From a virus (lineage: Duplodnaviria > Caudoviricetes): DNA of 64,000 bases. The notes under the pieces were generated by a model, which worked only from the letters and a program-made list of their open reading frames with translations, was not told the DNA's origin and made no database searches. The position numbers and the translations under genes were made by a program. This document shows positions 63 through 14,702 of this stretch, piece after piece; positions within the stretch are counted from its first letter, which is position 1; each line of letters starts with the position of its first letter. The stretch lies in IMG/VR virus record IMGVR_UViG_3300020465_001196, one strand, 5' to 3'.

Positions 63-374
63 TTATACCTCTAGCTGTTTTTCAATTGCAACGTCTTTAA
101 GTTCTTCTGGTATGCCTTTAGGATATGATGGGCTTATTTGAAACTCTTCACCTGTTTCTTCATTTTTACATCCTGCTACTAACCAATCCCATTTAAAGTT
201 CATATCATCTACAAATTCCCACAATACATCATACGTACCATTATCACGAGTTTGCATTAACAACTCTGCTTTACATTCTTCCATAGTATCAAATGTTTTT
301 TCCATTTGGAAAGTTTGTTGAGTTGCTATAGGATCTTGTCCAATTAAATAAGCTAAAATTAATATCTTAAACAT
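63..374 (-). CDS. hypothetical protein
   Basis: 103-aa ORF abutting rplL; hydrophobic N-terminus. Confidence 0.75.
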   Translation of the reverse strand: MFKILILAYLIGQDPIATQQTFQMEKTFDTMEECKAELLMQTRDNGTYDVLWEFVDDMNFKWDWLVAGCKNEETGEEFQISPSYPKGIPEELKDVAIEKQLEV

Positions 375-752
375 TTACTTTAACTCCACTTGTCCACCTG
401 CGTCTTCAATTTCTTTTTTAAATTTTTCAGCTTGGTCTTTAGCAACTTCAGTATCAACTGTTGCAGGCATATCACCTTCAACAAATTGTTTGGCTTCCAT
501 TAAACCAATACCTTTGATTGTTTTAATTGCTTTCAACACGTTAATTTTTTTACTACTGTCAAAGCCTGTTAGTATTACATTAAATTCTGTTTTACTTGCA
601 TCAACAGGTGCCGCCGCTGGCGCTCCTGCTGTTAAATTGGCTAAATCTAAATCCCATTCTTTTTCTAATTGCTTTGCAAGTTGACCTGCTTCTACTACTG
701 TTAGTTGTCCTAATTGTTCTATTAGTATATCTAATTTGTTTGTTTCTGTCAT
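375..752 (-). CDS. rplL: 50S ribosomal protein L7/L12 (bL12), phage-encoded, full length
   Basis: N-terminal LTVVEAGQLAKQLEKEW dimerisation helix, Ala/Pro hinge, TEFNVIL...KKINVLK...GIGLMEAKQFVE...AGGQVELK C-domain; RBS AAAGGA. Confidence 0.95.
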   Translation of the reverse strand: MTETNKLDILIEQLGQLTVVEAGQLAKQLEKEWDLDLANLTAGAPAAAPVDASKTEFNVILTGFDSSKKINVLKAIKTIKGIGLMEAKQFVEGDMPATVDTEVAKDQAEKFKKEIEDAGGQVELK

Positions 753-815
753 AAATCCTTTTATATTATAACTGTTGTTTTAATTACTTATATTAATATT
801 GTATTATAATTGGGG

Positions 816-1076
816 TTATATGTCAATCTGCTCATTGTAAACTTTAAAAGCATCTGGGTCCAACGTTGATATAGTGTACTCCCCAAGTATCTTACCATTT
901 TTATTATCTTGTTCAGTAATTGACATATGGCATTTCTTACACTTCCAACCTTCTACCCAAAACTTATCTTTATATATTGGTAGTTCAGTTTCTTTATTAA
1001 TGCAATGAGTATGTAGCCAAACAGGTATGCCTGTTAGTTTATACCACATCCTGCGTTTGTGCAATGTCCATTTCAT
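816..1076 (-). CDS. hypothetical protein with HxHC and CKKC motifs
   Basis: 86-aa ORF, ATG/stop overlap with neighbour. Confidence 0.7.
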   Translation of the reverse strand: MKWTLHKRRMWYKLTGIPVWLHTHCINKETELPIYKDKFWVEGWKCKKCHMSITEQDNKNGKILGEYTISTLDPDAFKVYNEQIDI

Positions 1077-1291
1077 TATGGTGTATACCTTTTTATTCTT
1101 TTATCAAATTCTTCTTTAGTTATATCGTCAAATACTATACAAGTCCATTTGTTTGAATCTCTTAATTTTTCAAATTCTTGCCAAGCCATACGTTTAGTAA
1201 AGTAACCTAAATAAATCGTATCAGTTTTTCCATTATCAGCATTGTGCATATAAACTTTATGAAATTGATTATGTGTTTTTTCAAAACTCAT
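1076..1291 (-). CDS. hypothetical protein
   Basis: 71-aa ORF in tightly packed run. Confidence 0.7.
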   Translation of the reverse strand: MSFEKTHNQFHKVYMHNADNGKTDTIYLGYFTKRMAWQEFEKLRDSNKWTCIVFDDITKEEFDKRIKRYTP

Positions 1292-1292
1292 A

Positions 1293-1379
1293 TTATAACC
1301 AAATCAATGTTTCATGAATGTAACCTAGCCAGAGTGCTATTAAGATTGCTAATGCAAAAAACCCTAGTAACAGTTTCAT
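1293..1379 (-). CDS. 28-aa single-pass membrane micropeptide (MKLLLGFFALAILIALWLGYIHETLIWL)
   Basis: Hand-translated; fills gap exactly; upstream GGAG. Confidence 0.55.
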   Translation of the reverse strand: MKLLLGFFALAILIALWLGYIHETLIWL

Positions 1380-1392
1380 CAACTCCATACAT

Positions 1393-1473
1393 CTACCAAA
1401 CATATACTCCTAGGTAGAAAGCCAATACAACCATTGCTATAATCAATAAACCTTGTACTACATATGAGTTCAT
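1393..1473 (-). CDS. 26-aa single-pass membrane micropeptide (MNSYVVQGLLIIAMVVLAFYLGVYVW)
   Basis: Hand-translated; fills gap in operon. Confidence 0.55.
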   Translation of the reverse strand: MNSYVVQGLLIIAMVVLAFYLGVYVW

Positions 1474-1481
1474 GATAATAT

Positions 1482-1808
1482 TTATTGGAAATACTTAAAT
1501 AGGCCTACCATTAAGAATCCTGTAATTATGACTGAAGTAATCATAGATAACCAAAATCCATAGTTAGGTATCATATAAACAAATATAGGAAAGAATAATA
1601 AACTTACTAAAACAAAATATACAGTTTGAATACTAATCATTTTAAACGTCTGTACGTCAACTCCTGCATAATGCATAAAGATAAATGAAACAAATGTTGC
1701 TAAAGGTATGCCTAACACAAAGGCTCCTATAGTAGGATAACGTCCTCCTATAGTACTAACTGTTGCAATAATAATACCGCCAATGATTGCTTTAAGTAAT
1801 AGTTCCAT
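1482..1808 (-). CDS. 4-TM membrane protein, DUF3147-like
   Basis: KAIIGGIIIATVS...GAFVLGIPLATFVSFIF pattern resembles DUF3147. Confidence 0.65.
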   Translation of the reverse strand: MELLLKAIIGGIIIATVSTIGGRYPTIGAFVLGIPLATFVSFIFMHYAGVDVQTFKMISIQTVYFVLVSLLFFPIFVYMIPNYGFWLSMITSVIITGFLMVGLFKYFQ

Positions 1809-1809
1809 T

Positions 1810-2040
1810 TTATATTGTATTGCCTGTTATATTCCACCATTCTTTTTCATCAACGTTATGGCATCTAGACATCATAACTCCTGGCTTAGGCATAGTATTA
1901 AAGAACTCCATATGTTCAATACATTCTTCTTCAGTATTGAAAAACTTACGTTCGCTTTCGTACCATCCACCTTCGGGACCTGCGATAAAAAATAATATGA
2001 TTAATGCCCATTTCATAGTACTACTTATTGAACACACCAA
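1810..2040 (-). CDS. small secreted hypothetical protein (C-x18-C)
   Basis: Signal-like N-terminus, Cys pair. Confidence 0.65.
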   Translation of the reverse strand: MVCSISSTMKWALIILFFIAGPEGGWYESERKFFNTEEECIEHMEFFNTMPKPGVMMSRCHNVDEKEWWNITGNTI

Positions 2041-2243
2041 ACTTTTAATGACTCTACTTCAATACGAGCTTCATTAAACTTTGCTAATGTTTCTTCAGCT
2101 CTTTGTTGTGCTACAACTTCACATTGTTCTAAATTAACATATGAGGTATTACTAGCATCTTCAAACTGCGTACATTCTAATTCAGATAGCATTGTGTAGT
2201 CTGGCCATTCAAGCATACAAATTACTGCAACGATTTTCCACAT
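2025..2243 (-). CDS. small Cys-containing hypothetical protein
   Basis: RBS GAGAGG; TAAATA core at 2263-2268 upstream. Confidence 0.7.
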   Translation of the reverse strand: MWKIVAVICMLEWPDYTMLSELECTQFEDASNTSYVNLEQCEVVAQQRAEETLAKFNEARIEVESLKVWCVQ

Positions 2244-2282
2244 AGTAACCTCTCTCTCAAAGTATTTAGTGGGCAGGGGCTC

Positions 2283-2460
2283 ATATATTGTATTTTGTGT
2301 ATGCGAAAAATTTTTTTGCAGGGGTGTTTATATTGCATAGTTTGTATTAGCGATTTTTTGTATGTGCGGGGTTATATATTGTATTTGTGTGTATGTGGCG
2401 GTTATATTGTATAGTTTGTATGTGCGGCGGTTAGTTTGTATTTGCTTGTATTTGCGGAAA
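2283..2460. repeat. G/T-skewed degenerate repeats (TTATATTGTAT...TTGTATGTGCGG)
   Basis: TATATTG(T/C)AT at ~2285, 2329, 2375, 2402; TTGTATGTGCGG exact at 2358 and 2416. Confidence 0.75.
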
Positions 2461-2798
2461 ATTATAAGCAATCTAATTAACTTTACAAAAGGATATAACA
2501 TAGCTCGTCTATACGGATATATCTGCTCGCTAGTGGAACGGAACTTACGTTCCTTTTCCAGCTCTCGCAGAAGACTCTAATTACAGCAACCACCATGCCC
2601 CACCATAGCAAATAGTAATAAAGATTTCATTACAGTATGTTACACGCCTTAGACTAATTGTTCACCGTGTGTGTATGCTGTTATATGTGCTAACACTAAC
2701 AAGTACAGAGCATTACTAGTACTACGTATATCATAGCCTTTAATCCTGTTTTAAAGCCCGTGTATCCTATATCCTGACAGTTCTGCTTAAATAGTGCT

Positions 2799-2885
2799 AT
2801 GAACGATCGTATAGTTGAAATAGTGTTGTATGTACTTGCCGCTTTATGGTGGTTTATATTTGTGTATATGATATTTGTGGGTTAG
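2799..2885 (+). CDS. 28-aa membrane micropeptide (MNDRIVEIVLYVLAALWWFIFVYMIFVG)
   Basis: Hand-translated; TAAATA at 2788-2793 just upstream. Confidence 0.45.
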   Translation: MNDRIVEIVLYVLAALWWFIFVYMIFVG

Positions 2886-3020
2886 AAACCTATATAGTTG
2901 AAGCCAACACAGTTATTACAGTTTTCCAAGATAGTGCCAGTGTGATCCATTAAGTTATACCTCTCGCCGCGAGGTATTGTTATAAATGCTATTTTTTATA
3001 GCATTTTAATTTGTAGCATC

Positions 3021-3146
3021 ATTCACAATGGTTCATAGTAGTTCATAGTGTTCACAGTTCTTTACTGTTGATCACATCACAGTACTGCGTGTAGGCTCAT
3101 AGTAGCTCACAGTTGAATAACTGTCGTTTCTGTTGAGTTCATGGTT
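3021..3146 (-). repeat. ~10-bp-phased array, unit CT(A/G)TGA(A/G)C on minus strand
   Basis: Plus strand RYTCAYRRT-type units at 3021, 3031, 3041, 3050, 3095, 3105, 3137. Confidence 0.7.
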
Positions 3147-3404
3147 CTTACCGCGGGGTATACCTGTTATATTAGTTGTTTTATATTTAAAATAGTACAT
3201 TACAGAATTCTATACATTTAGCTAAAAATTTTTTACTGCAATTTTTTTAGCACCGCCCTATACATTACGTCTTACCTTTTTTGCCCAAAAAATATAACAG
3301 CCGCCATAACCCTGGTCCCTAGGATTTGTCCTAGCGAATATTTACATGGTCGGCCAGGGGAAAATTATTTTATTTTTCTTTTTTCTTTTACGAAATAAAT
3401 TTCA

Positions 3405-3429
3405 TAAAAAAAGGCCCCGTAGGGCCTTT
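3405..3429 (-). terminator. rho-independent terminator
   Basis: AAAGGCCC-TACG-GGGCCTTT followed by T run on minus strand, just after ORF 3456-3749. Confidence 0.8.
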
Positions 3430-3455
3430 AGTGTAGGAGTGTTCTGTATAGTACT

Positions 3456-3749
3456 CTATGCTACCTTGCTTAACATAGTAGCTGGTACATTGTATCGCAT
3501 AGGGAATCCACCCTTGCTGTCAACATTAACAAGTATGTACTTCTGCTTGATCTTATCAATAGTACCCTTGTATGTCTGTCCGTTTCTGCTAGTGAACTGT
3601 ACTCTGTCTCCAGCTACAAAGTTCCTTCTAGCTTCTGAAGCCAAATAGTTCTGCTTCAGTTTAATAGCATCAATAACCTGTGATACTTCATATGTGCTAT
3701 CCAAGTTCATGATAGCATCTATTATAGTTCCTATTGCCAGTTTAGCCAT
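3456..3749 (-). CDS. hypothetical early protein, SH3/KOW-like C-terminus
   Basis: RBS AGGAGG; FVAGDRVQF...GTIDKIK pattern. Confidence 0.75.
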   Translation of the reverse strand: MAKLAIGTIIDAIMNLDSTYEVSQVIDAIKLKQNYLASEARRNFVAGDRVQFTSRNGQTYKGTIDKIKQKYILVNVDSKGGFPMRYNVPATMLSKVA

Positions 3750-3758
3750 TTGACCTCC

Positions 3759-4106
3759 TTAGTCTGCTCTACTACCCATATGAGCATCAAACCCATATTT
3801 GTTTAATACTTCTGCATAAGCTGAAGCACCTACCTCTTTACAATCCATTGATTGTCCTCTGTGTTGGGCAGGATCCCACAGTTGCATTGCTCTACCTCTA
3901 TAACTAGGTTTAAAGCCAATTGAACTTAATTGCTTTGCCTCTTGGCTATTAGTTCTTGTTACAGAGACTTCAACCCAAGCAAACCCACAATACATAGGTT
4001 CACCATACTCATTTCCACCTGTTGTTTTAGTCCAGTTGTCCAAGTAGTTTACTACTGCCTGTTTCGCGGCATTTGTAGCTTCTGTGTGTATTTGATCTAT
4101 TTGCAT
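3759..4106 (-). CDS. hypothetical early protein (CGFAWV family)
   Basis: RBS AAGGAG; start refined to 4106; promoter at 4138-4165. Confidence 0.75.
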   Translation of the reverse strand: MQIDQIHTEATNAAKQAVVNYLDNWTKTTGGNEYGEPMYCGFAWVEVSVTRTNSQEAKQLSSIGFKPSYRGRAMQLWDPAQHRGQSMDCKEVGASAYAEVLNKYGFDAHMGSRAD

Positions 4107-4248
4107 ATCTGCTCCTTTGTTTTGCATTATATTAATAATAATAACATAATATAGGATTCTGTCAAGTGTTTATTTGCCATAAAAAAGTGGCGTAAACCTT
4201 GGTAGATCTACGCCACTATATGCGTCATATTACGAAAGGAACAGAATA

Positions 4249-5310
4249 TTATGACGCAATTCTGTTGGCCGCCATGCTTCTCTTCATACAAGTAGCACTA
4301 GCCAGCTTCTTCCAATCTGTGCTCATTCTCATTAGATCAGCTATTTTGGTGACCATTCTCAAACTTATTTCGTTTAAGCTATCTCTGTTATCCCATAGGA
4401 AATCAATAAGCTCTTGCTCTTGTTCCGGGGCGAACTTGTATGGAGTAAGCATTTCTCCATCTGCTATGATCTGTTTACATCTAAGCATTCTATCACGAAT
4501 ACTATCCATTGTTAAATCCAAATAGTGACATCTGGACATTACCGCTTGTAAGTGGTCCTGTAGCTTTTTAGATTTAACATAATCAAACTTGATGTTTGTT
4601 ATCATGATCACAGATCCTTGGAATTCAAATCTATCTGGCACACCCTCATTGGCTAATACTCTGGATTCTGTATTCCAACTTATGTATCTCTTCTTGCTTG
4701 AATCTAAAGCCGCTTTAAGTATGTTAAGAGCAACATCATCAAATAGGATACTGTCGCAGTCATCTAATACTAGGATATGTCCTCTATTAGAAAACTTAAA
4801 TAGTTTCTGATACAATCCTATGGCACTCATAGCACCTCTAACTATTTCCCATTTGGGTTGAGCTTCTGAGATCTTATCGAAGATGTTGGCCTCGTTTAGT
4901 TTCTCTTCTACTCCGTAACTTTTACCAACTCCTGGAGGGCCACTAACTATCATAGCTCTAACAGTCCCTTCCATAGTTGCTTCCGTCATAGTATCTAGGA
5001 TATCGAATCTTTCTCTGATTCTATCAATTGCTTGTTCTTCTGTTTCACCAGGTATGTTACTGTCGACGTGTTTGTTTTGCTTTTCAAAATCAGACTCGTT
5101 AACGAACTCGTAACTCTTAGGTGATTCACATCTTACCTTAATTGTACGAGCTGGAAAGTTAGGCACGTCAATGGCATCAACTGTAACAAAGCCACCTTGC
5201 TTATCAGTAGCAAATGCTTTTGTCATAGGAAATATTGTGCCAGCAACCGAAATAGGTTTGCCTGCTTTCTTACCGTAGGTTCCTTCTACGATCTTTACAA
5301 ATGTTTGCAT
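4249..5310 (-). CDS. AAA+/P-loop ATPase
   Basis: Walker A GPPGVGKS, Walker B LVLDDCD, sensor SVIMITN, MSRC arginine-finger-like motif. Confidence 0.85.
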   Translation of the reverse strand: MQTFVKIVEGTYGKKAGKPISVAGTIFPMTKAFATDKQGGFVTVDAIDVPNFPARTIKVRCESPKSYEFVNESDFEKQNKHVDSNIPGETEEQAIDRIRERFDILDTMTEATMEGTVRAMIVSGPPGVGKSYGVEEKLNEANIFDKISEAQPKWEIVRGAMSAIGLYQKLFKFSNRGHILVLDDCDSILFDDVALNILKAALDSSKKRYISWNTESRVLANEGVPDRFEFQGSVIMITNIKFDYVKSKKLQDHLQAVMSRCHYLDLTMDSIRDRMLRCKQIIADGEMLTPYKFAPEQEQELIDFLWDNRDSLNEISLRMVTKIADLMRMSTDWKKLASATCMKRSMAANRIAS

Positions 5311-5377
5311 AGTGTTCCTTTCTTTGCAATGTTAATTTATAATATTATAATAGCATGGATCTAAGATCTGTCAACCA

Positions 5378-5629
5378 TTAATTATTGTTCTCGATCTTTT
5401 CTCCTAATACATTACCAGCTTTACATCCAGCTAATGTTCCTAAAATAGTTGCCGCAGTTTTACCTGATCCGCTACCTACTTTAGATCCTAATACTCCACC
5501 TGCTACACACCCACCTGCAGTTGATACATCCTTTTTAGATATAGTTCCTGTAGTTGCATAACAACCTGATAACATAATCATAGCCGTTAATAATAATACA
5601 AGTGATATTAATGTTTTCTTATAGTACAT
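5378..5629 (-). CDS. glycine-zipper lipoprotein
   Basis: Lipobox LSGC; GGCVAGGVLGSKVGSG...ILGTLAGCKAGNVLG. Confidence 0.75.
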   Translation of the reverse strand: MYYKKTLISLVLLLTAMIMLSGCYATTGTISKKDVSTAGGCVAGGVLGSKVGSGSGKTAATILGTLAGCKAGNVLGEKIENNN

Positions 5630-5849
5630 ATTGACCCTCTCTCTTTAAGTTAATAAAAGGATAACCTAAGTTTTTAAAGTGTCCCAGCTTTCTGGCTCTT
5701 ACTAACATCCTAGCAAGAATCGATGTTTCATGGTTATCACTACTTTGCATCAATTGGTTAAATTTATAGAGTAAACCAGGCGCATCGCCGAAACCTCTCT
5801 GAGCACTTTTAAGTCTGCCGACTATTAGCTTCTTGCTTCTAATTCTCAT
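5619..5849 (-). CDS. hypothetical protein
   Basis: 76-aa ORF overlapping both neighbours. Confidence 0.65.
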   Translation of the reverse strand: MRIRSKKLIVGRLKSAQRGFGDAPGLLYKFNQLMQSSDNHETSILARMLVRARKLGHFKNLGYPFINLKREGQYVL

Positions 5850-6828
5850 ATGTGTCTACCTTTATAGATTGACTTTCTAACTCTGAACAACTATATCCTA
5901 GTTCTTCTAATTTTAATTTAGAACATTTCTTTTTTGCAAATCTTATTTCATCATAATAACTAACCTGCGTACCTCTAGTATCATGATAGTCTGTTCTGTA
6001 TATTCCAAATTGCATTGTAGACCAATTACTCCAAGTACCATTCTTTTTACCTGCTGGAGGAATAATTGAACCTTGGTAATGATAAACTAACTTACCATTA
6101 ATCCATAATTTTAAAAATCCACTATCCTTTGTTGTGTAGTTGACATTCATTACTACATCATTCCATTGGTTAAACAATTCTGATATGTCTAATGCTTTTT
6201 GGTTTGTATTCTCTTTCCAACTAACTGAACAACCTTCATTACCTTTGGCACCATACTTTTTATAAATCTTAGGTTCATTACAAGCAGTTCTTCTTTGTGT
6301 ATAAAGACCATCGCTTTCAATTGACCAGTTAAACATTGGTGCCCAATCACCATCGTTATGTATCTGCCAAATAGAATTGTGTCCTTCTTCATGTGGAATC
6401 TCTTCTACATAAAACGATAGTGTTTGCCAAACATTACCTTTGAAACCAATTTGTGAATTATCATTTGCAGGAGTTAATTCATTTCTTTCTGAATCTTGTC
6501 CGCAGTCCCATGATGTATTATTTGCTACATCATTTTTTGTAGCACCACAACTGCCTTTTCTAAGTTCAAACCTTAAAGCACTATCTCCATATCTAGTGTT
6601 GCTAGATACTTCTTGTATCATCCAAGGTTTCCAAAAAGACATATCATAATTGTATTTCCATTTATGAGGCCACTTCTGGAAAACGTCACCATCAGTTTTA
6701 ATTACTTGATTTTTAATTTTTAAAGTATTTGCTTCTGCTTTGTTGCAACCACCTAATCCCCATGCAAAGAAATACACGGCAAAGAATAGTATTGCTATTG
6801 TTTTAAAGTTTGGTTTATTGTTTTCCAT
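5839..6828 (-). CDS. exported polysaccharide-lyase-like beta-jelly-roll protein
   Basis: Signal peptide; ALRFELR...RNEL...WQIH...WNDVVMNV...KLWING...QFGIYR...YYDEIR motif order typical of Polysacc_lyase/ConA-like folds. Confidence 0.65.
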   Translation of the reverse strand: MENNKPNFKTIAILFFAVYFFAWGLGGCNKAEANTLKIKNQVIKTDGDVFQKWPHKWKYNYDMSFWKPWMIQEVSSNTRYGDSALRFELRKGSCGATKNDVANNTSWDCGQDSERNELTPANDNSQIGFKGNVWQTLSFYVEEIPHEEGHNSIWQIHNDGDWAPMFNWSIESDGLYTQRRTACNEPKIYKKYGAKGNEGCSVSWKENTNQKALDISELFNQWNDVVMNVNYTTKDSGFLKLWINGKLVYHYQGSIIPPAGKKNGTWSNWSTMQFGIYRTDYHDTRGTQVSYYDEIRFAKKKCSKLKLEELGYSCSELESQSIKVDTYEN

Positions 6829-6886
6829 CTGTTCTGTTCCTTTTGTTATACTATTATAATAGCATATTATAGGATTCTGTCAACCC

Positions 6887-6994
6887 CTAAAATCCCCAAC
6901 AAGTAATGCCCATAATACATAAGGTTTCTGTTGTCCACAGAATGTATATTGTACAGATTATACCCAAAATTACTTTTAAAATGTTCTCTCCCAT
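6887..6994 (-). CDS. 35-aa hydrophobic Cys-containing micropeptide
   Basis: Hand-translated MGENILKVILGIICTIYILWTTETLCIMGITCWGF directly after promoter 7001-7028. Confidence 0.5.
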   Translation of the reverse strand: MGENILKVILGIICTIYILWTTETLCIMGITCWGF

Positions 6995-7032
6995 ATAATA
7001 ACTATAGCACAATGTATAGATAAGTCAACCAC

Positions 7033-7061
7033 AAAAAAAGCCCCATATTTCAGGGGCTTTT
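7033..7061. terminator. rho-independent terminator (bidirectional shape)
   Basis: AAAAGCCCC-ATATTTCA-GGGGCTTTT. Confidence 0.8.
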
Positions 7062-7069
7062 AAATTTGT

Positions 7070-7300
7070 TTAAGCACCAGCTACAGCAGTAGCTTTTACT
7101 GAATCGATGTACTCTGATTTTGTCATCGGTTCTGATAATGCAATGAACTCTACTTTTGAGTGTTCATCTTTTGGTGTATAACCATTATTGATTAACACCT
7201 GAGCTCTGTTATCTGGTTTGTTAGTGAATCTTTTTACCAACTTACCATCGGCTCTTTTTGCTTCAAGTACGAATGTGTACTTTGTATTTGAGTCAGCCAT
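7070..7300 (-). CDS. hypothetical early protein
   Basis: Start refined to 7300 (RBS CAGGAGG); own promoter and terminator. Confidence 0.75.
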   Translation of the reverse strand: MADSNTKYTFVLEAKRADGKLVKRFTNKPDNRAQVLINNGYTPKDEHSKVEFIALSEPMTKSEYIDSVKATAVAGA

Positions 7301-7390
7301 TATAACCTCCTGTAGATTTAATTGACTATTTGTTTTAGTATAACACACTTTGGCCATTTGTCAACCAAAATGTTTTGGCCTAACATAGGC

Positions 7391-8041
7391 CTATTTCATA
7401 AATGTGTGGTTGCCCAACACACCTATATACTCTTTAGAACCAGCCCAGTAAGGTGATACTAAATTGTGATTATAATAGAAAACCGCACCGTGCGTGTTAT
7501 CATTTATAACTAGTTTTCCCCAACCTGTAATATAAATTGCAAGTTGAATAGAATCTTTCCAAGCTCTGGCATTGCCTTCGATGACTTGGCCAGTCTTTTC
7601 ATAGTTGGCCCATACAACATCTTTCTTACCATCGCAGTACCAACTGAATTGACATTTGTGTTTAATTGGCCAGAACACTCTATCTTCTTCAGCAACATCT
7701 TTACCTCTGGTCTTCCAAGACTCTCTTATAGGTCCTTGGTAGATAACTTCACAATAGGTAGACGGCCATCTAGAATCTGCAATTCGATTCTTAACAACAT
7801 TACCAACGGCCGCCTTACCTGATTCACCTTCAGCTCTGGCTTCAAAGTAGATGTTCTCTGCTAAACACATAATTTGTTTTATTTTTTCTTTATCATGAAT
7901 ATTGTTTTCTTCTAATTCAATCTTTAGAATTGTTTTGGCGTGCGTTGTAAGTGTTGCGGCTTGTGCCTTCTGATCAAAGAACCAAAGCACAACCATCAAC
8001 GCCATTAAGAAGTAAGCAACCTTTGTAATCAACTTATCCAT
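7391..8041 (-). CDS. cell wall hydrolase, SleB/Hydrolase_2 family
   Basis: CLAENIYFEARAE...AVGNVVKNR...WPSTYCEVIYQ...CQFSWYCDG...FYYNH...LGNHTF; N-terminal TM; start refined to 8041. Confidence 0.9.
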   Translation of the reverse strand: MDKLITKVAYFLMALMVVLWFFDQKAQAATLTTHAKTILKIELEENNIHDKEKIKQIMCLAENIYFEARAEGESGKAAVGNVVKNRIADSRWPSTYCEVIYQGPIRESWKTRGKDVAEEDRVFWPIKHKCQFSWYCDGKKDVVWANYEKTGQVIEGNARAWKDSIQLAIYITGWGKLVINDNTHGAVFYYNHNLVSPYWAGSKEYIGVLGNHTFMK

Positions 8042-8397
8042 TAAGCAACCTCTTCTTTCTTCCATTCATAATCATCTGTAGACCATTCATAGTCTCCATA
8101 ATCAATACTATCGCTATCTTCGTATGGAATACATTCAGCAACCTTTTTTGCTTCGAAGCTTTCTGAATGATCACCATTCCAATCACTAGCATAAACTTCT
8201 ACAGGTTCATCTTTATGATAACCTTCTTGCCATTCAATTTTATCAATACCACCTTCTTCGATAACAGCATCAACGGCTTCATCTCTACTATCAGCTACAA
8301 CATCATATTCAACCCATGCTGTGTAAGCCATTCTAACTCTGTATTTTGATTTACCGATATCCTTGTGTGGATTATCTTTGCTATATTCTTTTTTCAT
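8041..8397 (-). CDS. acidic hypothetical early protein
   Basis: RBS AAGGAAC; promoter 8424-8451. Confidence 0.75.
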   Translation of the reverse strand: MKKEYSKDNPHKDIGKSKYRVRMAYTAWVEYDVVADSRDEAVDAVIEEGGIDKIEWQEGYHKDEPVEVYASDWNGDHSESFEAKKVAECIPYEDSDSIDYGDYEWSTDDYEWKKEEVA

Positions 8398-8476
8398 ATT
8401 CTTGTTCCTTTTGTTATATTATTAATATAGCACATATTGGCCAATTGTCAAGACCCTAAATGACTCGCAGTTTTGC

Positions 8477-8677
8477 TTAATATTCGTCAAACAATACTCC
8501 TTCATCTTCATCTAGATCGCTGAAATACGTGGCATTATCTAATGCATCATCGGAACCTTGCTTATCCATACATTGGATACAATTCCATTTCTCATTATCT
8601 TCTGCATATTGTCTATCGTCAAAATGCTCTGTTGTCTCTTGACAAGTTTCACAGAACTTTGTTTTATATGGTACCAT
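8477..8677 (-). CDS. small Zn-ribbon-like protein (CETC...CIQC)
   Basis: Two CxxC motifs. Confidence 0.7.
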   Translation of the reverse strand: MVPYKTKFCETCQETTEHFDDRQYAEDNEKWNCIQCMDKQGSDDALDNATYFSDLDEDEGVLFDEY

Positions 8678-8903
8678 TTAATCTTTCCTCCTCTTCCATT
8701 CTATAATTGGCTTCACCGGCAGGTGTTCTCCAAATGTTAATAACCTTTACACGATGTTTCATATCTCTGTAGAACTCTTTCAACACCTTATGAAATGGTG
8801 TAGGTTCATCTACTTCAACTAAAGTGTATCCTCTAGTCATTCTCTCATCTTCAAGGTAATGATCTTTCTCCTTGTAGAATCTATATCTAATATGAACTGA
8901 CAT
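8664..8903 (-). CDS. hypothetical protein
   Basis: Coupled overlaps in early operon. Confidence 0.7.
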   Translation of the reverse strand: MSVHIRYRFYKEKDHYLEDERMTRGYTLVEVDEPTPFHKVLKEFYRDMKHRVKVINIWRTPAGEANYRMEEEERLNGTI

Positions 8904-9148
8904 TATCTAACTATACCTTTCTGCATTATTAAATGCTTGTCCCTTGCATCAGCAATAGGCTTGTCCTCATCTTCATCTTCTACTAAAGTCCAATAAGGTC
9001 CTCCATACATTAATTCTTTTACTTTTGCATCAACTAATCTTTCTGCTTCGACTTCATCGTCTGCACTAAAAGAATTAAATAGACTTTCTAAATGTTGTCC
9101 TTCTTCTCTAGGTGAATCAAAGTCTACTATTAATCTATATTTTGGCAT
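8903..9148 (-). CDS. hypothetical protein
   Basis: TAATG coupling; RBS GAGGAGG. Confidence 0.7.
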   Translation of the reverse strand: MPKYRLIVDFDSPREEGQHLESLFNSFSADDEVEAERLVDAKVKELMYGGPYWTLVEDEDEDKPIADARDKHLIMQKGIVR

Positions 9149-9330
9149 TACGCATCCTCCTCTTCTGTTTGATGATATCTGTCTGTAAAGTCCAAAGGTA
9201 AACCATTTGGATCGTGTTCGTCTTTTATTTCAGACTCTTTCCATGTGTTGCCATTTGCAATACTTGGTGTACCGCTTCTACCTGTTAAGGCATATATTTT
9301 ACCTGCTTCTGGTTTTCCTTTATCTGACAT
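9148..9330 (-). CDS. hypothetical protein
   Basis: TAATG coupling; RBS GGGGAGG. Confidence 0.65.
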   Translation of the reverse strand: MSDKGKPEAGKIYALTGRSGTPSIANGNTWKESEIKDEHDPNGLPLDFTDRYHQTEEEDA

Positions 9331-9857
9331 TACGCAACCTCCCCTAGTTTGTAACTTCTTTTTAATATATCGATATGATCTTTAACAGCATCTATTTCTA
9401 AAGACTTAAACGGTCCTTCAACATACTTGCCATTGTCTGTGTATATCGATTCTGAATAAAACCAAGTGCCAATTGGATTACCTAAATAATCTTTATGACC
9501 CGTATCTTTCATTAGATAAACAAATTGCTCACCCGACTTAAATCCGTTAGCAATAAAGTCTGCTTCATCTTTGTACACTTTGTACCCGCAGTTCTTCTCG
9601 CCTCTGTCTCTGCCATAATAAACATTTTGCACTTCGTATAATGGATCTTGTCTGTTGTCAAAATCAATTTTGTTTCCAACAATCATTCCCCATTTACTTG
9701 CGTCGCCAAGTTTAATTGCTTCTGTTACTTTCTTAGGGTCAGTCCAATAATCAATTAAGTTATAGCCCAAGCCGCCTGTATAGCCGTCCCAGTGTTGATA
9801 ACTTGCTATGATTCTTCCTGACTTTTGTTGTATTCCTATTCTAGCTCTAGTTGACAT
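9330..9857 (-). CDS. conserved phage hypothetical protein (TRARIG...YQHWDGY family)
   Basis: Recurrent phage N-terminal motif; TAATG coupling. Confidence 0.75.
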   Translation of the reverse strand: MSTRARIGIQQKSGRIIASYQHWDGYTGGLGYNLIDYWTDPKKVTEAIKLGDASKWGMIVGNKIDFDNRQDPLYEVQNVYYGRDRGEKNCGYKVYKDEADFIANGFKSGEQFVYLMKDTGHKDYLGNPIGTWFYSESIYTDNGKYVEGPFKSLEIDAVKDHIDILKRSYKLGEVA

Positions 9858-10057
9858 TACGCTTCCCTCCTATTTGCAAATAATATTGCAGTACCAGTTG
9901 TCATAAACGCAACACCTATACCAACCAGCATAAGCATTTCTGGTAAAGTGTTTGCAGTTTCCATACACTTGCCATCGCAGTCGTTAGCACTACCCGCCAT
10001 TACTATAAGTCCTATGGCAATTAGTATTGTTGCTAAAGTATTAAAAATGTTTTTCAT
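9857..10057 (-). CDS. 2-TM membrane protein with CDGKC loop
   Basis: Two hydrophobic segments; promoter 10083-10110. Confidence 0.75.
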   Translation of the reverse strand: MKNIFNTLATILIAIGLIVMAGSANDCDGKCMETANTLPEMLMLVGIGVAFMTTGTAILFANRREA

Positions 10058-10124
10058 TGTTTGTTCCTTTTGTTATATTATTAATATAGCATAGGTTTCT
10101 ATGTTGTCAACCATTAATTTTCCC

Positions 10125-10394
10125 TTATTTTGTGGGCGAATATGTGCCATCATCTTCGCAGTAAACCATAGGATCTACATATTCTTGCAGTTCTGCATGA
10201 TCAACAACATTAACTCTAGGCTCGTTTTTACCTACTTTAACTGTCAAGTCAAATTCAGCATTACAAGCCAAGTCAGTTGCTTCATCCTCATCCTTTGCAT
10301 CTACATCAACCCAAACAATGTAAGGTATGCCAATGCTGTATTTTTTATATGGTGATTTAAGATATGCTGTTTCTTCTTCTTGAGTCCAAACCAT
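10125..10394 (-). CDS. hypothetical protein
   Basis: RBS CAGGAGG; TAATG coupling. Confidence 0.7.
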   Translation of the reverse strand: MVWTQEEETAYLKSPYKKYSIGIPYIVWVDVDAKDEDEATDLACNAEFDLTVKVGKNEPRVNVVDHAELQEYVDPMVYCEDDGTYSPTK

Positions 10395-10561
10395 TATTCT
10401 TCCTCCTGTACATCAACTGTTATTGTATAACTAATTCCTGTTATACCAGGACTATCTTTGAAATATTTGTGTTCTCTAACAGCTTCCCATATTATTTCAG
10501 AAACTGTTTCTTTATCTCTTTTATTAAAGTTTTCGTTGATTCCTATTATTTGCTTTGGCAT
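10394..10561 (-). CDS. 55-aa hypothetical protein (not in ORF track)
   Basis: Hand-translated MPKQIIGINENF...VQEEE; RBS GAGGAGG. Confidence 0.65.
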   Translation of the reverse strand: MPKQIIGINENFNKRDKETVSEIIWEAVREHKYFKDSPGITGISYTITVDVQEEE

Positions 10562-10875
10562 ATTGGATCCTCCTCATATGGTTCCCATGGTAGCTCTCCA
10601 TCTTCGTACAGCTGAAACCATCTTCCTTCTGCACCATCAAGCCACTCATCTCTTAATTGTTGTTTAGTATATTTGTGAAAGCCTCTAAAGCCTCCCTCGA
10701 GTATATAAATTAATGTTTCGCTTTGCGGATCCATATCGTCAGTTATATCTTTGTACTCGACTTGTATCAATCGTTCAGCTAATACATAATGCGTTAAGAA
10801 GTGACCCTCCTTATCGACGATCACTTCTTCATCAGCACTACAATCTCTATAGTCTACAGGTAAGTTATTTGGCAT
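10546..10875 (-). CDS. hypothetical protein
   Basis: Start refined to 10875 (MPNNLPVDY). Confidence 0.65.
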   Translation of the reverse strand: MPNNLPVDYRDCSADEEVIVDKEGHFLTHYVLAERLIQVEYKDITDDMDPQSETLIYILEGGFRGFHKYTKQQLRDEWLDGAEGRWFQLYEDGELPWEPYEEDPICQSK

Positions 10876-11461
10876 TCGCTTCTTCCTTTTCCTCTGCTTC
10901 ATATTCAATAAGTCTTTCAACGCAACCCATATAGTCATCAATCAACTTACCATCTTCTGTATCCCAAAAGTCTGAATCTGATCTAGGTCCATCTTCGCTA
11001 CAATTATAGCAACGATCATCAAAGTCTTCATACACACCCATGAAGTCACAACCTGGTTCGTAATATACTAGACGAATTGAAACATCATCATTATTAGTAA
11101 GGTAATGTTCTATAGCCCCTAATGGTGGTGCCCAAGCACTATCAAAACCAAAGTCGACTTTCTTATCTCCATCGTCTTTACCAAATAGTTCTTCTTGTTC
11201 TTGTATTGAACCTTCGTAGATATCTACATCCCATTTGGTACCCCAATTGTCTACTCGCCAATCGTACCAGTTGTTATGTCCGTCCACGGTAGGTTGTTTC
11301 TTCATTACCTTTTCATCACTTGTGCTTTGCGTATCTTCAAGTTGTTTAGGCATTGGATAGAGTGCGTTTACGAACTCACCCTTTTTTGCACTATCAACAA
11401 GTTTGTCAACCTTTGCTTTAGGTCCAACTATTGAGATATTATTATTACACCAATTTGGCAT
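10865..11461 (-). CDS. DUF1281/Api92-like ferredoxin-fold protein
   Basis: MPNWCNN...WYDWRVDNWGTKWD...FDSAWAPP...YYEPG signature. Confidence 0.8.
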   Translation of the reverse strand: MPNWCNNNISIVGPKAKVDKLVDSAKKGEFVNALYPMPKQLEDTQSTSDEKVMKKQPTVDGHNNWYDWRVDNWGTKWDVDIYEGSIQEQEELFGKDDGDKKVDFGFDSAWAPPLGAIEHYLTNNDDVSIRLVYYEPGCDFMGVYEDFDDRCYNCSEDGPRSDSDFWDTEDGKLIDDYMGCVERLIEYEAEEKEEANAK

Positions 11462-11676
11462 TATTGCTCCTCTCCTGGTTTGTTGATTAATTGAACATAC
11501 TCACAAAAGTTATGTTCAAATACCGTAAGCAAATCATTATATGATCCTTGCATCATATCAACAACAATGCCTTCGGTCTTGTCCATAGGAAACGCAAGTT
11601 GCTTACCTAAAGATTTTGCAATCCCTATCAATGCGTATGCGTTGCCTTGTGGTCCTTGTAAGTCTATAGTTTGCAT
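11461..11676 (-). CDS. conserved phage hypothetical (IDLQGPQGNAYALIG family)
   Basis: RBS AAGGAG; promoter 11711-11738. Confidence 0.75.
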   Translation of the reverse strand: MQTIDLQGPQGNAYALIGIAKSLGKQLAFPMDKTEGIVVDMMQGSYNDLLTVFEHNFCEYVQLINKPGEEQ

Positions 11677-11878
11677 TTTTTCTGCTCCTTTTTAAGTTAA
11701 ACTATAATTAAATATAACATAGAAACCTATATTGTCAACCATTTATTTTAGTCTAAATACCCCAAAAAAATGTAATGATTTCAATGACTTACGTGAGGCA
11801 TTTTTATTAAAAAGAGGCTTGACATAACAGTATACTGTGTTATAGTTAATAATACAATTTACAACAAAAGGAGCAGTA

Positions 11879-12466
11879 ATGTATACAACACAACAAGTAC
11901 AAGCAGGTATTAAGTTTTTGCAGAATGCTAATGTTAACATGGAAGTAGAGTATGATGGTGATGAGAAGCAAATACACATACACATACATACTCCTGAGGG
12001 CACTCGTTTTTGGACTAGTGGAGATAGCATATGGAGTGACAGGGGTGTTAAAAAAGGTGTACTAGTAGAAGGTATTGGTATGTGTGCTACGTACACAGAC
12101 TACGAAGAAGACAACTATTGGAGTGGAGGACTTGCGGGCAACATTAACTATGATGGTAGTGGAAAAAACGGCACATGGTATGATGGAATTGACGATCCCT
12201 CTGCGTTAATTAATAGGAACCCTAGTAAAGCAAGTGATGGATTAATTTATACAGACTATGGCTTTATTGAGAATGCATTTAAATATATGGAAGAGCATTG
12301 CGACTTTAACAGCAAACTGTTAAGGGAAAAGTTTTTAGACTTTGACTATAGCGAACAGGGAATGCAAGATGAGGGTAACGTTAACTTAGACGTTGACTTA
12401 GATGGAGACTTTTGGATACATTGTAATGACGAGTTAGTAAAGTTTACAGCAACTAAAGTTGCATAA
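11879..12466 (+). CDS. acidic hypothetical early protein
   Basis: Own promoter 11819-11846, RBS AAGGAG, terminator downstream. Confidence 0.8.
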   Translation: MYTTQQVQAGIKFLQNANVNMEVEYDGDEKQIHIHIHTPEGTRFWTSGDSIWSDRGVKKGVLVEGIGMCATYTDYEEDNYWSGGLAGNINYDGSGKNGTWYDGIDDPSALINRNPSKASDGLIYTDYGFIENAFKYMEEHCDFNSKLLREKFLDFDYSEQGMQDEGNVNLDVDLDGDFWIHCNDELVKFTATKVA

Positions 12467-12477
12467 CACGTAAAAAG

Positions 12478-12514
12478 AAAAAGCCCCTTTGCTAAATGCA
12501 TTAGGGCTTTTTTT
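12478..12514. terminator. rho-independent terminator between convergent units
   Basis: AAAAGCCC...GGGCTTTTTTT. Confidence 0.75.
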
Positions 12515-12635
12515 ATGATTTAAATTTAATTTAAGATTAAAGGGCCGAATAGGATCAGCAGTAACATTCCTGGCACAACTATAGTCATGGGCCAGAAATG
12601 CAGTAACTCTAATAATGCACGTTTAGTACTTCTCT

Positions 12636-12977
12636 TCACGCAACCTCCAAGAAAGCTTCGTTGATTGGCTCCCAATCAATACCGTTATCGCTATAGTGCC
12701 ATACACCTTTCATGTGTACAAACAAACCTTCTAGGTTCTCTTTGTTCTTTACACCGCTGATTTGCGTACATAAAGGATCACCATAACCATCTATACCAGC
12801 ATGATCATCAACTAGATCCCATTGAGCTAAATGTACAAAGTACTTGGCATCCTTATGTGTAGGTGCAACCTTTTGCAATTGTTCAGCAAGTTGTACAGCT
12901 GAATCCTTTTGATACAATGTAGAAGTAACCGATTCACGCACATTGTAGTAACCAACTCTAAAGTTTTTTATTTCCAT
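12636..12977 (-). CDS. hypothetical early protein
   Basis: RBS GAGGA; promoter 13005-13032. Confidence 0.75.
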   Translation of the reverse strand: MEIKNFRVGYYNVRESVTSTLYQKDSAVQLAEQLQKVAPTHKDAKYFVHLAQWDLVDDHAGIDGYGDPLCTQISGVKNKENLEGLFVHMKGVWHYSDNGIDWEPINEAFLEVA

Positions 12978-13117
12978 ATGTTATATTCCTCTCTGTTATT
13001 ATTAATAATAGCACGAGTTACAGATCTGTCAAGTGTAAAAATTCCTTCCATTTTACACTACAAATTGTATTGACGTAACGTGTAACTATGCTATAATTTA
13101 AATAAAGAAAGGAACAA

Positions 13118-13330
13118 ATGGGAATAATATCTAAAGAGGCCGTAGATCTCTTAAACAAACTATGCAAATATAAATCATATACAGTACATCACAAATATGC
13201 TAGACCTAGTCGTATACAGTTTAGATTAAAAAGAGATGCTAAAAAGTACTGTATACAACATAACCTAGATCACAGTAGCAGTTGGGTCTTAACAACTTGT
13301 CATCATTATATTAAACCTAAAATAAAATAA
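13118..13330 (+). CDS. basic hypothetical early protein
   Basis: Promoter 13070-13097, RBS AAAGGA. Confidence 0.7.
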   Translation: MGIISKEAVDLLNKLCKYKSYTVHHKYARPSRIQFRLKRDAKKYCIQHNLDHSSSWVLTTCHHYIKPKIK

Positions 13331-13631
13331 ATTAGGCTCTTGACAATATAGAAACCTATGCTATTATAATATTATATCCGGTCGTAATTAACTAGAGCAG
13401 AGAAAATTTAGAAAGAAAAGATCGTTACTCAAAGGTTGGGCCGAACTCTGACCTTTTTACCATGGCACATGATATAGTCATGACTTGACTACATATTGTT
13501 TGTCGCTGTTGTTCGCCGCGGTAAGTCATTGAAATTATTAGTCTTTTTTCACACAAGATGTTGTGTCGCGTTTATCACGATGATCACTATATCTAGTGGC
13601 CAATTGTTACTGTACAGCAATGCGTACAGAC

Positions 13632-13728
13632 TGTTGTATTTTTGCAACACTCTGTGACTAATGTGTTGTAATTATGCAACACCCGAAATCTGTTGTATTT
13701 TTGCAACAGGTGTTGCAATTGTGCAACT
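13632..13728. repeat. four 18-bp palindromes TGTTG(T/C)A-N4-TGCAAC(A/T)
   Basis: At 13632, 13664, 13691, 13711. Confidence 0.9.
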
Positions 13729-13774
13729 CATCAAAAACCCCAGAATTTCTCAACCTCCCGGCCCCTTCTCTCCT

Positions 13775-13876
13775 CTTTGAACCTATCCCCTCTTTGAGGC
13801 CCTTTGAACCTCTTTGAAGCCTTTGAGTGCTTTGAACCGCTTTGAGTGTCTTTGAGTGCTTTGAACGTCTTTGAAG
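13775..13876 (+). repeat. ten CTTTGA(A/G)N units, mostly 9-10 bp apart
   Basis: CTTTGA starts at 13775, 13792, 13802, 13812, 13821, 13830, 13840, 13850, 13859, 13869. Confidence 0.9.
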
Positions 13877-14246
13877 GTGTAGCTGTTATCACCTAACCAT
13901 CCCCGTCATAACAGCTACTAGTATCTCTGGGCTCCATCATCTTTGTTGTAACACTGACCGCTGAGCATACTGAGTATACCAACTTGATCAAAACAGTTCA
14001 GCACGGTTAGGATGTGTAACTCCTTCGATCCATAATGTTATTTAATATAGCAGTATACGATCATCATGTCAACCATTTAATTAGTCTCGGAGAGACCACT
14101 AGATATAGTCATAATTAAATGAGGCCATTTTCAGAGGCTATAGGGGCCACCACAACATATAGTCATGGTGAAACCTACGCAGGTCTGGCGTAAATGACTA
14201 CATATAGTCTCGGGGTTGACAATATCCTGACTAATCCTGGGATCCC

Positions 14247-14314
14247 TACAGCGGGGTCTGTATATGTTACAGCGGGGTCTACCGGCTTTACAGCGGGGTC
14301 TTCGCTATACAGCG
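14247..14314 (+). repeat. iteron-like TACAGCGGGGTCT x3 at exact 21-bp period plus partial fourth copy
   Basis: At 14247, 14268, 14289; TACAGCG at 14308. Confidence 0.9.
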
Positions 14315-14702
14315 TATATAAGATGATCACATATTCAAGCGAACAAATGATCAGGGGCCACAATCGTATGTGCTACGCCATGCAAAGAGTGAAACGTTTT
14401 GCATAAGAGCACATATGAAGCCGAAGGCCTGTGCGAAGCACAGTTGCAAGGAAGAGGTACGCTCTGTTTGTGAGCCATATGGCCATGGTAGGAAGCGATG
14501 ATCAATGGTGATTATATGGTTAAGAGGCCATGGTTTACAGCATAGGTAATTACTTTTTTGATGGTGAAAAACGGGTAATGAGAGACGCGGTTTCTCTTTT
14601 TGAGTACCCTGTAATCATCATGCTCTGTATACTGTCTTATAGTGTTCATCTTGTACTATTCACTAGTATGTCGTATAGTGTGTCATTGAGTGTAATCGTG
14701 CT

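Follow-up and report, generated by a model that had tools for sequence, protein, structure and literature searches.

The DNA analysed here, referred to as the window, is a stretch of 64,000 nucleotides from the viral record IMGVR_UViG_3300020465_001196 (Duplodnaviria; Caudoviricetes), with a G+C content of about 33% and four tRNA genes. Towards its left end lies a block of small early genes (4138–13097), which is bracketed by two inverted arrays of short repeats, the left one at 3021–3146 and the right one at 13775–13875; these two arrays are the subject of this report. The window found no match among GenBank phages with megablast or blastn. Its closest relative is L117/G001, a complete IMG/VR genome of 328,149 bp, with which positions 65–14319 are syntenic at 72–84% nucleotide identity. 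The large terminase of L117 is nearest to TerL of the Pseudomonas jumbo phage PA5oct (56% identity), followed by those of Sinorhizobium phage Phosso, Vibrio phage 2.275.O, Atu_ph07 and the Rak2/121Q group. Stretches of the window are contained in marine metagenome runs of 11 studies. Judged by these relationships, the source is an uncultured, PA5oct-related marine jumbo phage.

The right array consists of ten heptamers reading CTTTGAR on the plus strand, or YUCAAAG in the sense of a minus-strand RNA. They begin at 13775, 13792, 13802, 13812, 13821, 13830, 13840, 13850, 13859 and 13869, i.e. at spacings of 17, 10, 10, 9, 9, 10, 10, 9 and 10 nt, and account for 10 of the 28 CTTTGAR matches in the 64 kb. 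A first-pass annotation of the window had described ten such units mostly 9–10 bp apart, and all ten were located. The six left units that it listed were also found, as reverse complements of GYTCAYRG; this motif lies on the plus strand at 3031, 3041, 3050, 3095, 3105 and 3137, accompanied by degenerate copies. With spacings of 10, 9, 45, 10 and 32 nt, however, the 9–10 bp phasing claimed for the left array holds only within a triplet and a doublet. The left units are interleaved with two ACAGT-N5/6-ACTGT inverted repeats (3054–3068 and 3109–3124). When same-strand clusters of the unified motif YTCA[ACT]NG were counted in the window, the right array (10) and the left array (6) were followed by clusters of 2, and the largest cluster in 300 first-order Markov simulations of 64 kb did not exceed 5. 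Both arrays exist and neither is due to chance; their inverted orientation at the two ends of the early block was likewise borne out. What the two motifs have in common is C..TGAR only, position 3 being always T in the right array and never T in the left array of the window.

Relatives of the right array were collected by a metagenome scan with four units at right-array spacing as the query. This returned L186, which groups with the window; L203 and L205, which belong to the L117 lineage; L194, L201 and L202, which form a third lineage; and L184, L185 and L196, a more distant lineage with about 85% identity over the island to other contigs of the comparison. A scan of IMG/VR with three CTTTGAR units gave 116 stretches, nearly all of them unrelated coding sequence or simple repeats, the L117 genome being the only homologous one. 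The same genome was the only match to a pattern of the left hairpin, and a scan with the 195-amino-acid protein encoded at 11879–12466 gave no match. The left region was retrieved from L210/L211, L212 and L214/L215 through homologs of the 97-amino-acid protein encoded next to it; as this protein is very widespread, the left region could be recovered from more lineages. The inverted bracketing recurs in these relatives, L117 with its 72–84% identity included. Since relatives keep both arrays, no island devoid of them speaks against the arrangement.

Exactly ten TCAAAG units are present in the window, L186, L117 and L194 alike. The core is invariant and the spacers differ; the spacing is 8–10 nt with one gap of 16–18 nt (mean 9.5–9.8). 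Between the window and L117 the core bases are identical throughout (60/60) against a background identity of 72–79%, while only about half of the spacer positions agree and the spacing pattern is kept. The window and L186 are near-identical, yet their spacers differ, the number of units staying at ten. The variant found in the DNA run X6 at 13867–13868 falls within a spacer. In RNA sense the array contains 62–66% purines and 12–16% U in these four contigs (U being 21% in L196), and clusters of four to five G are found near its 3' end in all lineages.

The array is preceded on the minus strand by a promoter of the form TTGACA, 17 nt, TATATT (14072–14044), from which transcription is predicted to start near 14038. 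The promoter is kept in four lineages, in which the order is the same throughout: promoter, a leader of 155–172 nt, the array, a group of 18-bp palindromes and a convergent promoter, the latter standing back to back with the first promoter of the early operon. The window, L186, L117 and L194 are collinear with respect to promoter, leader length, hairpin and array; L184, L185 and L196 have the same order with a different leader. The palindromes, four copies of TGTTGYA-N4-TRCAACA at 13632–13728 just downstream of the array, occur in all four lineages. The convergent promoter (13340–13367, plus strand) faces the palindromes and the array and has equivalents in L117 (1131–1104), L194 (1652–1625) and L196/L185. 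We refer to this non-coding region as the hub.

Two helices and a pseudoknot were modelled in the leader (minus strand). Helix P2 (13986–14030), formed by arms at 14023–14030 and 13986–13993, reads GAUCGAAG/UUUUGAUC in the window and GGUCGCCCGG/UCGGGCGGUC in L117, L194 having a variant of its own; in three of its pairs both partners are exchanged (A-U to C-G, and G-C to U-A). P2 encloses the segment 14003–14011, which is the pseudoknot partner of the loop of an 11-bp hairpin, P4 (13879–13918). The stem of P4 is kept in L117 by a compensating deletion of 1 nt on each arm. Its loop pairs with the upstream CCU(A/U)ACC, the variants being U-A, A-U and G.U, and the pseudoknot helix is 97% paired. 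P4 ends 3 nt before the array in all three lineages whose leader can be aligned. In alignment A7, 89.9% of the cells counted for the structure are paired, compared with 29–53% when the partners are slid against each other, and the covariation score is 0.267, which 2 of 500 shuffles reach, as opposed to 0.162 for shuffled alignments; four pairs change on both sides. MAFFT shifts the 3' arm of P2 of the window by one column, and the pairing of the window is therefore understated in these figures. The minus-strand RNA should be the folded one, because the many G.U pairs would turn into A.C mismatches if the other strand were transcribed. Promoter and compensatory helices on a single strand make a structured non-coding RNA well supported. 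It is graded in this way rather than as proven since the modelled leader can be aligned in three independent lineages, which are few. The array itself cannot self-pair and would therefore form the exposed tail of this RNA.

A coding repeat was considered for the right array and rejected, since frames are not conserved between lineages: the open reading frame (ORF) at 13731–13892 of the window and that at 514–753 of L117 begin at different places, and the frame open in L117 meets a stop after about 15 codons in the window. In L117 and L196 the array is followed by terminator-like hairpins and then U-rich sequence. No Rfam family matched the RNA at gathering thresholds or at E values up to 5, and covariance model R1 did not find the leader in 40-odd more distant loci, L120 and L196 among them.

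Palindromes resembling NrdR boxes are scattered over 13465–14210 of the window (e.g. CACTATATCTAGTG, GACTACATATAGTC and ACACAAGATGTTGTGT), on both sides of the promoter of the non-coding RNA and near the convergent promoter. Similar boxes are found upstream of the promoter in L186, L194, L203 and L184/L196, one being common to L120. Outside the promoter, a non-coding stretch at 14247–14314 contains four copies of TACAGCGGGGTCT with a period of 21 bp.

At larger distances the motif itself is altered. The L196 array comprises 12 units mixing TTCAAAG, TTCATAG, TTCAACAG, ATCAATG, TTCAATG and GTCAATG; such a mixture of TCAAAG, TCATAG and TCAATG bridges the left and right motifs. L120 and L121, whose island ATPase is 62% identical, have 11 copies of YTCACKA at 9–10 nt spacing (L120:3142–3250) in the equivalent non-coding hub, which shares with that of the window an NrdR-like box and the type of palindrome. 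On account of this array, YTCA-type arrays seem to recur at the hub, the motif being free to change over longer distances. Separately, the unrelated viral contig L056 (IMGVR_UViG_3300032326_001900) contains at 199–316 an array of 12 TCAAAG(C)GAAY units with a 10–11 nt period, with an A/T-rich promoter-like stretch on one side and an ORF start on the other, i.e. the same hexamer in a similar layout.

The left array is embedded in a non-coding domain of the minus strand (2957–3161), which two CCGCGG boxes (3153–3160 and about 2965–2972) can close. This closing helix is part of the minimum-energy fold in four of five lineages. Hairpins are predicted at 2986–3008 and 2957–2977, the former covarying between lineages, and some of the left 'units' are in fact arms of small hairpins. 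The G.U pairs together with the GUAA loop of a hairpin further along (2530–2561) again point to the minus-strand transcript. In the RNA run X9 a contig of about 168 nt and depth 5.4 seems to cover the left array; its position (about 2968–3135) was deduced from bin depth and the distance to the contig end. It differs once, by a T-to-C change at 3051, which leaves the Y position of the unit intact.

The non-coding stretch to which this domain belongs, about 1.1–1.2 kb long, is kept in L117, L210/L211, L212 and L214/L215 with the same landmarks. The early terminator comes first, followed by an A/T-rich box that is conserved, a CCCCGCGG box and the repeat region; next are a perfect covarying hairpin, the second CCGCGG box, a hairpin that is capped by a GNRA loop and shows a compensatory change, and an array with a 30-bp period. 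The repeat units are far less constant. In plus-strand sense they read GYTCAYAG in the window, TTCACAG, CTCATTG, TTCATTG and TTCATCG in L117, where four units are kept, and are of CTTCACA and CTTCACT types in the L210/L212 clade. There the spacings are 10, 17, 18, 10 and 10. Across all of these units the constant part is YTCA only; on the other strand the L210, L212 and L214 lineages show RTGAAG-type units instead. By this comparison it is the domain that is conserved on the left, the array within it being far weaker than its counterpart on the right.

Two further features of this stretch were observed. The GNRA-capped hairpin (2530–2561, minus sense, GUAA loop) has a stem GAAC/GUUC that becomes GCAC/GUGC in the L210 lineage, a compensated change which suggests that the left non-coding region of 1.1 kb contains further structured RNA. 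The array with a period of about 30 bp (2288–2457), the third one of the window, has units like GCAAATACAA and CGCACATACAA and immediately precedes the next operon on the minus strand. Present in L117, L118, L121 and L210–L215, it is better conserved than any other non-coding array of the region and is probably the control region of the downstream radical-SAM and glycan genes.

The block between the arrays contains small ORFs on both strands, most of them on the minus strand. Promoters of the form TTGACN, a 16–17 nt spacer ending in TGn, and TAnnnT number 14 in the window, and 13 of them lie within 4138–14072; besides those described above, 11 near-consensus promoters with extended −10 elements belong to the block. 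The first-pass annotation had placed the strong promoters inside the bracketed block. This is correct for all but the outermost of the 13 (14072–14044, minus), which is located beyond the right array and fires through it, so that the array lies inside the promoter-bounded block and not beyond it. RNA-library contigs of two studies densely cover 3353–13274 and leave the left flank uncovered, whereas a DNA run covers everything. The lack of RNA-run contigs over 13275–14060 is not evidence of absence, and assembled contigs show neither ends nor strand. The concentration of promoters and the coverage by RNA-library contigs identify the block as a real, strongly expressed early module.

The block is closed by an intrinsic terminator (3410–3429, minus strand) that is identical across all lineages. 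The last gene before it (3456–3749, minus strand) encodes the 97-amino-acid protein, for which the model shows a helical hairpin of two helices and an SH3-like barrel of the Tudor/KOW/Sm-like type (mean predicted local distance difference test score 87.8). Its identity to the window copy is 71–96% across 19 aligned homologs, 48 positions being invariant in the 20 aligned sequences, and at least 120 further homologs were listed. Fold searches returned generic SH3-like barrels (Tudor, KOW, Sm/Hfq; E 4e-3 to 3e-2), from which no specific assignment can be made, and a match to a phage family resembling the ProQ C-terminal domain was sub-threshold (E 0.013). On this modelling the protein is a candidate nucleic-acid binder, and no more than a reasonable first one. 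Pfam and PHROG scans of 30 ORFs in and around the island detected no ParM, TubZ, ParA, ParR or T5 A1/A2-like protein and no recombinase; the sole nucleoside triphosphatase (NTPase) in these scans was an AAA protein of phrog_1250, a family widespread in T4-like phages. At the right side of the block, an ORF of 70 amino acids (13118–13330, plus strand) has its own consensus promoter (13070–13097). It looks like a strain-variable insertion, because contigs of the DNA run break inside it and L117 has neither an aligned counterpart nor an ORF at the matching place.

One sequence-specific DNA-binding protein could coat both inverted arrays and so delimit, loop or insulate the early domain, as a boundary, roadblock or centromere-like element. 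The 64 kb contain just these two clusters of the unified motif, in inverted orientation, as is also seen in L117; the L196 array tolerates changes at the very positions that separate the two motifs; and the conserved SH3-like protein is encoded beside the left array. It can also be argued that only a reader of double-stranded DNA could unify the arrays, because their motifs on same-strand RNA are complementary and not identical. In parC (bound by ParR), tubC (TubR) and the omega heptads of pSM19035, direct repeats of 7–12 bp at about one per helical turn are coated cooperatively by a small protein. The right array resembles these, with ten units at a mean of 9.5–9.8 bp, and the left array does so only within its sub-clusters. 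In contrast to those systems, no adaptor or NTPase gene of the kind is located nearby, and the arrays belong to a lytic jumbo phage with a transcribed, structured RNA. A partition centromere like parC or tubC, one of the analogies proposed at first, finds no support in the ORF scans, which revealed no adaptor or filament NTPase family, no partition or filament genes and no candidate from a known DNA-binding family. The right motif is invariant, whereas the left one drifts from CAG/TAG to TTG/TCG and on to CA/CT at irregular spacing; left units overlap the hairpin arms of a folded domain, and an RNA leader is joined directly to the right array. A shared DNA reader is thus unlikely, and the more specific proposal that one protein polymerises along one helical face at both boundaries was not upheld, the right array being welded to a covarying leader and the left one drifting and irregular. 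Of the symmetric bracket the non-random arrays, their position at the block ends and their recurrence stand, and the reading by a single shared protein is not supported. Inversion of the block, also suggested earlier, was not borne out: order and orientation are the same in L117 and in the L196/L212 lineages, and no strand-change joints were seen in four runs. As inverted repeats the arrays are complementary in same-strand transcripts, and an RNA pairing of the 5' tail with the 3' domain could hold the two ends of early transcripts to each other or make one RNA a sponge for the other. In the window the predicted duplex (−42.8 kcal/mol) exceeds that of shuffled sequences (−31.3 ± 5.4), 2% of which are as good; in L117, however, 7.7% and in the L196/L212 pair 36% of shuffles are as good. 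Each unit is complementary over no more than 5+2 nt, the mismatch at its centre being fixed, and the spacers do not match; the complementarity is weaker in L117, and covariation between the left and right motifs already looks absent. With a signal that is not reproducible across lineages, pairing was set aside as highly improbable.

Two other explanations concern the replication and the ends of the genome. The promoter-driven, purine-rich transcript might form an RNA-DNA hybrid that primes DNA synthesis, the convergent antisense transcript acting as a brake. Gene direction switches at the hub, where cumulative GC skew also has its minimum (about 12–14 kb). The array of the hub is purine-rich and U-poor in RNA sense with G4–G5 clusters near the 3' end, the convergent promoter is conserved, and NrdR-like palindromes, through which the hub might be linked to the supply of deoxynucleoside triphosphates, flank the promoter in all lineages. 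Active origins of T4 are situated at switches of transcription direction and GC skew, and oriE has evenly spaced 12-nt repeats of undefined role that are conserved in related phages (PMC3016281). The same layout is found here, i.e. even short direct repeats in an early-transcribed region, with both strands transcribed, at a switch of transcription and GC skew; the differences are a period of 9–10 nt in place of 12 nt, the lack of recognised repEA/repEB-like genes and the covarying RNA leader attached to the array. There is a likeness to ColE1 as well, in which a folded transcript from a strong promoter runs into a purine- or G-rich stretch opposed by a convergent antisense promoter (RNA I against RNA II). 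ColE1 shows no sequence or structural homology and has no repeat array, however, and hybrid formation and priming are hypothetical for the hub. A T4-type R-loop origin needs no folded pseudoknot leader, hybrid stability leaves the strict 6-nt core and the number of exactly ten units unexplained, the YTCACKA array of L120 is much less purine-rich by eye, and no initiator or RepEB-like gene was recognised. We consider an origin rather unlikely. Alternatively, the block of about 10 kb might be a long direct terminal repeat collapsed in assembly, with terminase or end-processing signals in the arrays just outside it. Short-repeat arrays flank the terminal repeat of T7. The DNA run X6 has contig depths of 12.6–15.1 inside 3332–13168 against 9.53 and 8.67 on the flanks, with breaks at both edges, and several metagenome contigs of 48–170 kb end inside the block. 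By arithmetic, ten sites at about 9.6 bp make some 96 bp, or about one turn round a ring of about 10 nm, a width that small-terminase rings may have. The relative PA5oct, with its TerL 56% identical to that of L117, has such a repeat of 39,080 bp, which contains 105 genes, most of them early, together with two abundant non-coding RNAs and was recognised by doubled coverage (PMC7318152). The early block, with its host-type promoters and the short-repeat arrays at its outer edges, is comparable to the repeats of PA5oct (39 kb), T5 (about 10 kb) and T7, except that the arrays are asymmetric in distance and quality and that redundancy is merely hinted at by a depth ratio of about 1.5 in one run. 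For the T5 first-step-transfer region, an analogy proposed at first that would call for pre-early genes within a terminal repeat at a genome end, this depth step and the lack of A1/A2-like families in the ORF scans were the observations made. The depth ratio is not 2, it was derived from per-contig means of a library of uncertain type, and strain mixture explains both ratio and breaks, one of which lies at the strain-variable gene (13118–13330). On its outer side, the depth step is separated from the right array by 500–700 bp, PA5oct encodes its homologue of the island ATPase elsewhere than in the terminal repeat, and contigs cannot show molecule ends. A terminal repeat with signals in the arrays is considered improbable, the depth step being a hint.

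The comparisons are best explained by two conserved elements independent of each other, one array lying where the early transcription block starts and the other where it ends. The best-supported form of this explanation places an early non-coding RNA with a tail of ten repeats at the 5' edge of the block and a second non-coding domain with looser repeats at the 3' edge. The likeness between the left and right motifs (YTCA..G) may reflect a shared DNA-level reader or be incidental. For the right element the following mechanism is proposed. The near-consensus host-type promoter at 14072–14044 would start an RNA near 14038 of about 265–305 nt, whose leader of about 165 nt would fold into P2, the 11-bp hairpin and the pseudoknot between its loop and the upstream segment. 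Three nucleotides after the hairpin the ten YUCAAAG heptamers would follow at intervals of 8–10 nt as an unstructured 3' tail. This architecture is what the sequence comparisons show. Beyond them, ten identical, exposed heptamers on a folded handle could serve as a multivalent platform capturing many copies of one sequence-specific factor early in infection, most likely an RNA-binding protein or a nuclease of host or phage, and the convergent promoter with the neighbouring palindromes might tune the level of the RNA. That the tail acts at the RNA level in this manner is put forward tentatively, with slightly less than an even chance of being right.

In PA5oct, the nearest cultured relative, early non-coding RNAs are abundantly produced from the early region (PMC7318152). 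The ncRNA001 and ncRNA002 of this phage have no repeat array, however, and this is one of several points that weigh against an RNA platform. The covariation comes from few events, in three independent lineages with the modelled leader, and the window has no clean terminator after the array. Transcription of the repeats is also compatible with a role at the DNA level. We know of no RNA-binding specificity that YUCAAAG would match. A sponge for tRNA was considered, as YUCAAAG complements a CUUUGAR anticodon loop over 7 nt, and rejected, the loop of the phage tRNA-Gln being UUUUGGU. Among the closest parallels are CsrB and RsmZ, which are likewise non-coding RNAs of a few hundred nucleotides with many copies of a short motif able to soak up a binder. 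They differ in presenting GGA in hairpin loops, whereas here YUCAAAG is arranged in a linear, even tail behind a pseudoknotted handle; moreover, the present RNA is phage-encoded, matches no Rfam family, and has a binder that is only presumed. A more far-reaching version, in which a new class of decoy RNA made from one of the strongest early promoters titrates a host RNA-binding regulator or a sequence-specific defence nuclease through its ten YUCAAAG sites within the first minutes after infection, with the other array in the same circuit, is regarded as possible but doubtful.

The phage lineage concerned is common in marine samples, as seen from the 11 studies and from well over 100 sequence clusters of the 97-amino-acid protein, and its cultured relatives, i.e. 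PA5oct and the Rak2-like and Atu_ph07-like jumbo phages, serve as models in the study of giant phages. If the block were a terminal repeat, this clade would have candidate packaging signals in the two arrays. Alternatively, the array could be the long-missing functional handle on oriE-like iterons. As a conserved early RNA with a fixed count of identical exposed sites, the right element would be an easily testable candidate for a takeover or anti-defence RNA.

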